From Escherichia coli (GTDB taxonomy: Bacteria; Pseudomonadota; Gammaproteobacteria; Enterobacterales; Enterobacteriaceae), in NCBI RefSeq assembly GCF_016026235.1, contig NZ_CP065614.1: 64,000 nt of DNA; one strand, 5' to 3'. Shown here piece by piece: positions 36,128 through 36,412 of this stretch. Position 1 is the first letter of the stretch; each line of letters opens with the position of its first letter. Made by a program: the position numbers and the translations under genes. The notes beneath the pieces are model-generated. The model saw only the letters and a list, made by a program, of their open reading frames with translations. It was not told where the DNA came from and ran no database searches.

Positions 36128-36412
36128 GGGGTCCGCTTGGAATTCGGAAATTTTCCCACGCTAAGAGAATTGAGTTAACGAGTGGTTACGTCCAGGCCAG
36201 CTAACTCACTGAACGTAAAGGCTGTACGAAATGTTCTGACCGTCCGATAACCGTCTGGCTTACTTCCGTACATTCCCTTGCGTGGATGTACAGAATTGTA
36301 CGATTTCGGACACCAAAACCGCTGTTATCCCGCCATCTTGGCGATTCCTGAAAGTCATTTATCTAAAAAATAGTCTTAACGTGGTTTATTTTCCGAATTC
36401 CAAGCGGACCCC
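36128..36412. mobile_element. Tn3-derived inverted-repeat miniature element (TIME-like MITE)
   Basis: 285 bp with no ORF. The 38-bp terminal IRs are GGGGTCCGCTTGGAATTCGGAAATTTTCCCACGCTAAG (36128-36165) and the reverse complement of 36375-36412. They match at 33 of 38 positions. Confidence 0.7.

Follow-up and report, generated by a model that had tools for sequence, protein, structure and literature searches.

A 285-bp miniature element in a virulence-plasmid region of Escherichia coli, with a predicted res site and probable ties to the Tn2501/Tn2502/Tn2503 lineage

The DNA analysed here, a stretch of 64,000 nucleotides of the Escherichia coli contig NZ_CP065614.1 (hereafter the window), is identical around the locus of interest to large virulence plasmids of the IncF type from Shigella and enteroinvasive E. 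coli; ospE2 and virF lie a few kb off. Positions 36128-36412 hold a miniature element of 285 bp, a candidate Tn3-derived inverted-repeat miniature element (TIME; Szuplewska 2014, Gomi and Yano 2026), which is bounded by 38-bp Tn3-family inverted repeats (IRs). The left one (IRL, 36128-36165, + strand; GGGGTCCGCTTGGAATTCGGAAATTTTCCCACGCTAAG) corresponds to the passenger/tnpR-side end in the orientation of the parent transposon discussed below, and 19 of its 38 columns are invariant among 18 family members. The right one (IRR, 36375-36412, - strand; GGGGTCCGCTTGGAATTCGGAAAATAAACCACGTTAAG when read on the opposite strand) corresponds to the tnpA-proximal end and abuts the stop codon of a helix-turn-helix (HTH) antitoxin gene. 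IRL and the reverse complement of IRR match at 33 of 38 positions. An earlier note on this DNA had placed the ends at the same coordinates with the same degree of match, and both a direct comparison and a repeat search agree with it, the latter returning the two IRs as the sole inverted pair within 36000-36550, extendable to 45-nt arms at 84%. Their outer 15-mer, GGGGTCCGCTTGGAA, has three sites in the window (31461 and 36412 on the + and - strand, respectively, besides 36128 on the + strand) against 0.11 expected, a number reached in none of 100 shuffles. The 5-bp flanks, ATAAA on the left and TCAAT on the right, form no target duplication, again as the earlier note had it.

The interior has no meaningful open reading frame (ORF), its sole ORF being a 45-aa GTG-initiated one that runs beyond the element, and tblastn within the element gave no TnpA or TnpR match. 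The earlier description of these 209 bp as encoding nothing thus holds as far as coding content goes; empty they are not, since a putative res site with three subsites lies there. In an alignment of divergent copies, interior conservation is concentrated in repeated half-sites of the TGTMCG type, and three of the six TGTMCGNWA matches of the whole window fall within the element, albeit for a motif that was defined after seeing it. Site III (36210-36232, + strand, 23 bp) comprises two direct half-sites, TGAACGTAAA and TGTACGAAAT, and has 14 of 23 columns invariant. It is followed, after an 8-bp spacer, by site II (36241-36272, + strand, 32 bp) with the inverted half-sites CGTCCGATAA and TTCCGTACA, and, after a further 14 bp, by site I (36287-36312, + strand, 26 bp), which reads TGTACAGAATTG-TA-CGATTTCGGACA around a central TA at 36299-36300, has 17 of 26 columns invariant and is the presumed crossover site. 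Over 18 miniature copies, the majority base accounts for a mean fraction of 0.90 in the res subsites and 0.91-0.92 in the IRs, as compared to 0.62-0.79 in the spacers and 0.76-0.80 in the rest of the interior; within site II, the ends (0.93) are better conserved than the centre (0.84). The remainder comprises a less conserved 44-bp segment between IRL and res (36166-36209, + strand; 0.80) and a poorly conserved 62-bp segment between res and IRR (36313-36374, + strand; 0.76).

A counterpart to this arrangement is found in Tn2503, the element of Yersinia pestis Java 9, which is 6,769 bp long and carries arsHRBC and divergent tnpR and tnpA genes with a three-dyad res in between (PMC3316555). The layout 23-8-32-14-26 is common to ten autonomous transposons and 12 miniature copies. 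In the tnpR-tnpA intergenic region of the transposons, the 23-bp block adjoins tnpR, which starts about 11-12 bp from site III in Tn2503 and in the locus labelled L081 in our comparison, and the 26-bp block adjoins tnpA. Site III of the element is collinear, without gaps, with the tnpR-proximal block of all ten transposons, the length of site II and its 8-bp distance from site III are the same in Tn2503 and L081, and site I together with the 14-bp spacer matches the tnpA-proximal block in length. In the res of gamma-delta, the sites are 28, 34 and 25 bp long and are ordered in the same way with respect to tnpA and tnpR.

At the level of individual bases, element positions 83-185 align gap-free with the intergenic res of Tn2503 (61 of 103 identical) and with that of L081 (59 of 103), the latter being the best 103-mer in the window (next best, 48 of 103; background, 25.9 +/- 4.5). 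Smith-Waterman scores were 163 against Tn2503 res (61 +/- 10 for shuffles; z = 9.8; 0 of 1,000) and 140 against L081 (about 60 +/- 10 for dinucleotide shuffles; z = 7.7; 0 of 1,000), in one orientation only in either case. The Tn2503 resolvase is a small serine recombinase resembling the gamma-delta and Tn3 resolvases (PDB 1gdt, 2gm4 and 5cy1; E about 1e-24). The central dinucleotide of site I is TA in the window copy, but other miniature copies have TT and the transposons GT or AC; two kinds of partial copy, described below, break precisely there. As judged from sequence, the interior is a complete res of the order III-II-I that is conserved as strongly as the IRs, and resolution at this site by a serine resolvase would be its expected activity.

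The IRs lead to the same lineage. In the metagenome loci, many full-length tnpA genes of the Tn3 family have their stop codon inside an IR of the element's type; there are also complete units, 4.6-8.5 kb long and with such an IR at either end, in the order IR, passenger genes, tnpR (leftward), res, tnpA (rightward), IR. Three of ten autonomous copies are flanked by 5-bp duplications (L097, CTATT; L110, TTCCT; L115, TTGCC), the other seven are not. The same transposase, at 94-98% amino acid identity, is present on plasmids of Enterobacter, Klebsiella, Salmonella, Rahnella and Hafnia, and also on R702 and all four plasmids of Y. pestis Java 9. When read from plasmid pPCP (L153, 632-7398), both IRs of Tn2503 are GGGGTCCGCTTGGAAAACGGAAAATATCCTACGCTAAG and match IRL at 33 and IRR at 32 of 38 positions, so that the ends, together with the metagenome tnpA copies, do have a match among autonomous Tn3-family transposons. 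The IRs of TIME244, IMU, MITESen1, IS101 and a transposon in L006 all stay at or below 31 of 38. Tn2503 is related to Tn2502 and to Tn2501 of E. coli, and a defective Tn2502 was complemented in trans by Tn2501 (PMC3316555). Besides, a short stretch that runs into IRR (about 36365-36379, AAAAAATAGTCTTAA) resembles the 3' end of Tn2503 tnpA (AAAAAACAGGCTTAG) and therefore marks IRR as the tnpA-side end; in BLAST searches, element positions 238-285 likewise match tnpA-side ends of transposons.

What the element shares with the Tn2501 group is thus the IR type, a homologous res with identical subsite and spacer lengths, and the vestige of a tnpA 3' end at IRR. It differs from Tn2503 in size and content (285 bp devoid of the tnpA, tnpR and passenger genes that fill the 6.8 kb of the latter), in five to six positions of the IRs, and in the centre of site I (TA as opposed to GT or AC). 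With res regions only about 60% identical, the element represents a sublineage that is separate and older. The Tn2501 group combines Tn21-like IRs with a divergent tnpR-res-tnpA module like that of Tn3 and gamma-delta, and is itself neither Tn21 nor Tn3. The label of Tn3/Tn21-type ends therefore stands for a Tn3-family TIME, yet not for a parent in Tn21 or Tn3, whose place is taken by the Tn2501/Tn2502/Tn2503 lineage. Two other parents were considered and dropped. One was the minimal transposon at L006 6058-9837 (IR-res-tnpR-tnpA-IR, IR GGGGTTCCGTGGGAATTTCTGCGATAACAC; labelled by PGAP as 'Tn3 family transposase' only), whose IRs match at 23-24 of 38 positions and whose res shows no significant similarity to the interior (z <= 0.8). 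The other, Tn5403, was a guess that was not confirmed, and the Y. pestis Java 9 matches then pointed to Tn2503.

We consider it highly probable that the element is a non-autonomous TIME of the Tn2501/Tn2502/Tn2503 lineage that lost tnpR, tnpA and the passengers and kept the IRs and the whole res. The segment at 36166-36209 is the position where the parent's passenger genes and tnpR were lost, and the segment on the far side of res is the one that ends in the tnpA vestige. TIMEs are delimited by IRs of about 38 bp of the form GGGG...ACGYTAAG, a length of 50-500 bp, the lack of a transposase gene, and flanking repeats of 5 bp (sometimes 6 bp). The earlier note had already called the element a TIME, and its Tn3-type IRs, its 285 bp without a transposase gene and its occurrence in many unrelated contexts agree with that call; flanking 5-bp repeats are absent from the window copy and present at three of 26 family copies.

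The family is widespread. In PLSDB, 4,609 plasmids match the element in part and 744 over at least 80% of its length, and 586 of 5,426 complete E. coli genomes (about 11%) hold a near-full copy, with fragments in about half; 94% of the matching places in these genomes are on plasmids. Full copies lie, in both orientations, in contexts as unrelated as pINV, two sites on IncK2/Z plasmids, an IncI-gamma/K1 plasmid, ColV-type IncF plasmids, and one plasmid each of Salmonella and Klebsiella, often near partition, stability or toxin-antitoxin modules. An IR scan of species-representative genomes and metagenomes added divergent full-length copies (278-289 bp, 65-76% identity) from Xenorhabdus, Dryocola and uncultured Enterobacterales; full-length copies in the same range of identity also occur in Salmonella and Klebsiella. 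The 285 bp are hence not unique to this plasmid, given the 744 plasmids, the other genera and the three duplicated copies. A scan of species-representative genomes with the exact IR yielded 12 loci and no transposase; a 988-aa ORF in L014 that was tried as a candidate is a DUF927 protein, and the ORFs near other solo ends are ordinary genes. Relatives of the Tn2501-group tnpA (79-91% nucleotide identity over at least 80% of the length) are present in 236 of the 5,426 E. coli genomes, fewer than the 586 with the miniature element.

Perfect 5-bp duplications flank three of the 26 copies examined (L015, TACGT; L020, TAAAT; L049, AAGAA). This is far above the chance rate of about 1 in 1,024 per copy, and it follows that the 285-bp unit itself has transposed, the duplications flanking exactly a unit of 285-287 bp. 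Most copies, that of the window included, are instead located at breakpoints with exchanged flanks. L003, L004 and L007 have a common left flank and different right flanks, and the same is true of L005 and L026. Single-nucleotide polymorphisms (SNPs) are likewise mosaic about position 172: L005 and L003 are 91.9% identical to its left and 97.4% to its right, L004 and L029 98.3% to its left versus 92.1% to its right. The simplest reading of the missing duplication would be that copies recombined with one another, through res or by way of RecA; replicative transposition within one molecule is a possible alternative. Both processes leave one copy with the left flank of one site and the right flank of another, and either may lie behind the junction of the window copy.

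The earlier note had also argued for recombination, from the missing duplication together with a solo end elsewhere in the window. The shared flanks and mosaic SNPs support the first half of that argument; the solo end has to be taken out of it. This third end is real and faces right, and what it shares with the element family extends to 22 nt, beyond the 15 claimed. At 31461-31482 (+ strand), a family IR is represented by its outer 22 bp, identical over 22 nt to a variant IRL in L005, and at 31483-31601 (+ strand) there follows the truncated end of an insertion sequence (IS) like IS5075/IS4321, of the IS1111 group, 94% identical to the IS5075 end in the Klebsiella plasmid L025. L025 has an intact IS5075 inserted at the corresponding position of the same IR type, and in L151 an IS5075 is found at the tnpA-side end of a related transposon. 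The element's IR type is thus interrupted by IS5075-type elements three times (window, L025, L151), and by another IS110-family element in L018. ISs of the IS5075/IS4321 type have the IRs of Tn21-like transposons as known targets (PMC8269217, which cites Partridge and Hall 2003). On this evidence, the solo end is best described as an IR split by a targeted IS5075-type insertion and then truncated, not as the product of recombination between ends. A composite (TIME-COMP) of the 31461 end and the element was also rejected: 22 bp of the IR are left there and the outer flanks, ATTAT and TCAAT, differ.

How the element spreads can be sketched as follows. A Tn2501-group transposase supplied in trans would bind the IRs, and replicative transposition would give a cointegrate and a 5-bp target duplication. 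The gamma-delta/Tn3-like serine resolvase of the Tn2501 group, again in trans, would then resolve the cointegrate at the centre of site I, a task that host homologous recombination might take over. Where a replicon has come to hold two copies, these could recombine through res and the 285 bp of homology, deleting or inverting the intervening DNA and leaving mismatched flanks. The window copy, with neither a duplication nor helper genes nearby, would be a relic of such recombination. Mobilisation in trans, like the activity of the res, is a prediction.

Several points weigh against this account. None of the ten full copies on plasmids of E. coli, Shigella and E. fergusonii has a duplication, and recent transposition in these hosts is therefore unproven. 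Likewise unproven is recognition of the element's IRs by the Tn2503 transposase, the two IR types differing at five to six positions that include two in the outer half (positions 16-17), and no autonomous element with IRs identical to those of the element was found. RecA alone can explain the exchange of flanks. Finally, the differing centre of site I could block recombination between sublineages.

Another account, which we think unlikely, is that the element is mainly a portable res site that benefits its plasmid as a resolvase target, be it in multimer or cointegrate resolution or in modular exchange, with IRs that are relics and have ceased to support transposition in E. coli or Shigella. 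The conservation of the res subsites at the level of the IRs would fit, as would the ten enterobacterial plasmid copies at backbone junctions, all without duplication, and the frequent proximity to partition, stability and toxin-antitoxin modules; IS101 and TIME-RES are precedents for portable resolution (PMC4133298). Equal conservation can be turned around, however, as IRs at 0.91-0.92 argue for continued selection via transposition, and the three copies with fresh duplications have evidently moved. Moreover, no resolvase of the family is encoded in the window and related tnpA genes occur in only 236 of the 5,426 E. coli genomes, so a benefit to the resident plasmid would depend on a helper that is usually absent.

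Derivation from Tn21 or Tn3 proper, with movement by the Tn21 and Tn3 transposases that are common on resistance plasmids, appears improbable to us. Its appeal lies in the ends: the IRs bear a Tn21-type inner motif, IRR matches the IRL of TIME244 at 30 and that of IMU at 31 of 38 positions, Gomi and Yano place both of these near Tn21 (PMC13367494), and the IS5075-type elements that target Tn21-like IRs struck the element's IR type three times. Yet Tn2503 has the closer IR (33 and 32 of 38), the interior is unlike TIME244 (Tn21-res-like), Tn2-type res and IS101 and significantly like the res of Tn2503, and the divergent tnpR-res-tnpA arrangement of the parent is not that of Tn21.

Far less credible still is a local remnant without mobility of its own, left behind when a full transposon at this place in the plasmid lost its interior. 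The window copy does lack a duplication, and the region is full of IS and transposon debris (IS4, IS91-like, an IS5075-like fragment and a TnpA fragment). But units of 285 bp with identical deletion boundaries recur in many unrelated contexts and genera at 65-100% identity, and the duplications of three copies flank exactly 285-287 bp where independent deletions would vary; the distribution effectively refutes this origin. The least plausible proposal, that the interior is a small RNA or a regulatory signal for the adjoining antitoxin gene rather than protein-binding DNA, can point to the abutting stop codon and to the suggestion that TIMEs fold as RNA (PMC4133298), and founders on the lack of any Rfam match at E <= 1, promoter or terminator within the element, on a covariation term of -0.36 kcal/mol, on interior RNA 'pairs' that coincide with the inverted half-sites of res, and on the presence of the element in many unrelated contexts and both orientations.

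A survey of Enterobacteriaceae lists four named TIMEs, found in 0.06-2.3% of genomes (Gomi and Yano 2026, PMC13367494). Compared with their sequences (IS101, TIME244, IMU and MITESen1; Table S2 of PMC13367494), our element is none of them, as only the IRs align (75-87%) and the interiors are unrelated; no significant interior homology to IS101 or Tn2-type res was seen either. IS101 (209 bp, from pSC101) is alike in consisting of two Tn3-family IRs around a res and nothing more, and it is moved and resolved by the helper gamma-delta/Tn1000 (PMC13367494; PMC4133298). Yet its interior has no similarity to that of the element, its IRs match at 18-21 of 38 positions, and its parent is gamma-delta as opposed to the Tn2501 group. 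TIME244 (244 bp) is, like the element, a res-carrying miniature found mostly on plasmids of Enterobacteriaceae, with IRs that match those of the element at 27-30 of 38 positions; its interior is unrelated, its putative res is of the Tn21 type and its parent is another one. TIME244 also brackets resistance genes as TIME-COMPs, and no such composite of the element was seen in the window. IMU (288 bp, moved by the ISSod9 transposase; IRs 28-31 of 38) and MITESen1 (256 bp; IRs 25-26 of 38) are of similar size without interior similarity, and neither is reported to have a recognisable res (PMC13367494). TIME244 occurs in 109 of 11,572 Enterobacteriaceae genomes (PMC13367494); set against 586 of 5,426 E. 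coli genomes, the present family looks far commoner, although this is a rough comparison between differing datasets.

The element is an ordinary kind of mobile element, and its family is widespread in E. coli plasmids. TIMEs are rarely annotated, and this family is absent from the four-TIME survey of 2026 in spite of its frequency in E. coli. It seems to be unnamed: a literature search in an incomplete library, with ISfinder and TnCentral outside the comparison, returned no paper with the IR sequence or a miniature Tn2501 derivative. Because it carries a whole res besides transposon ends, each copy can be a substrate for transposase, resolvase and homologous recombination alike. Once the element is recognised, many breakpoints that lack annotation in IncF, IncI and pINV plasmids would be explained, and it offers a simple system in which to test how the Tn2501 group, so far little studied, mobilises in trans and resolves.

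The surroundings of the window copy illustrate such a breakpoint. Left of the element, an IS91-family element ends at about 36062, and the 66 bp in between (36062-36127, - strand) are a fragment of a CPBP/CAAX-protease gene of IncFII-type backbones, 98.5% identical to L008 4011-4077; in thousands of plasmids the CPBP match ends precisely at the first base of the element. To the right (36413-37011, - strand) lies a RelE/ParE toxin and HTH antitoxin module, so annotated in an identical plasmid and native to some IncFII and IncI backbones; in the IncFII plasmid L024 it is natively downstream of repA, without the element. The window copy thus joins two unrelated backbone pieces. Relative to the IncFII plasmid pEC-81009 (L008), the toxin-antitoxin module and the element together take the place of about 470 bp comprising the 5' part of the CPBP gene and upstream sequence; window 37136-37246 corresponds to L008 3431-3541 and window 36062-36128 to L008 4011-4077, both inverted. 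In the E. fergusonii IncI-gamma/K1 plasmid L023 (3520-4995), the same RelE/HTH module lies between two TIMEs of different kinds, with a full IS101 at 3520-3728 on one side and, on the promoter side, a copy of the element at 4710-4995, which is opposite to that of the window in both side and orientation. A functional link between element and module was discarded, the module also occurring without a copy (L024) and a toxin-antitoxin pseudogene near the partial copy of L009 being unrelated; we take their proximity to be coincidental, as may happen in the accessory regions of plasmids.

No Tn2503-like tnpA or tnpR is present in the 64 kb, and the earlier statement that the window lacks an intact cognate transposase proved correct. 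The Tn3-family TnpA fragment with another end type that it mentioned does exist, as a non-cognate C-terminal piece at 33909-34304 (- strand; Pfam DDE_Tnp_Tn3, E = 7e-26) that is 35% identical to the cognate-type TnpA of Tn2503 and 40% to that of the L006 transposon. Separate IS91-family pieces at 31597-31811 and 34527-36062 lie on either side of an IS4 copy and this TnpA fragment, and 31461-36127 consists almost wholly of nested, truncated mobile elements. From the haem-uptake genes to ospE2/virF, the window is a patchwork on old transposon ends.

Partial copies of two kinds start exactly at the centre of site I (element position 171-176). In the IncFII plasmid pEC-81009 (L008 4973-5115), just after the pemK stop codon, a gamma-delta/IS101-type IR is fused to element positions 176-285, and in pSCU-106-1 (L006 2366-2625) positions 33-191 of IS101 are fused at the same site I centre. 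Both partners carry CGTACG at the junction. These junctions would fit breakage at the centre of site I, although the partners are not res sites themselves. The class of matches covering 171-285, the L008 form included, made up 15 of 60 evenly spaced rows among the 5,000 best-scoring plasmid records. It is tempting, if speculative, to regard the element as more abundant than any other TIME on plasmids of E. coli and Shigella and as a hotspot of site-specific recombination that reshuffles their backbones, including pINV; we doubt that both parts will hold. Should they do so, junctions of the site I centre with CGTACG in gamma-delta/IS101-type IRs would represent resolvase recombination with pseudo-sites; one such junction adjoins pemK in a large IncFII class.

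Other loci combine the element with further Tn3-family parts. L006 has about 13 CAAGACAA octamers at 5950-6057, between a copy of the element and the 3.8-kb Tn3-family transposon mentioned above. In a Salmonella IncFII plasmid (L027, 1318-1760), a divergent full copy (75% identity) ends 36 bp from a Tn2/Tn3-type res site I (CGTCCGAAATGTTATAAATTATCGGACA) upstream of tnpR-blaTEM-1, placing two different res sites side by side. The IRR at L026 2747-2784 opens with 13 nt of MITESen1 type (GGGGTCAGTTTGG) and continues as that of the element, and L009 3951-4012 presents, head to tail, a MITESen1-type IR, a 12-nt stub of an element-family IR and a truncated copy (1-205), both of which are signs of end shuffling between TIME families. 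In the metagenome contig L069 (5020-8117), two inverted 254-bp MITESen1-like elements bracket about 2.6 kb in the manner of a TIME-COMP, 1.3 kb from the end of a Tn2501-group transposon.

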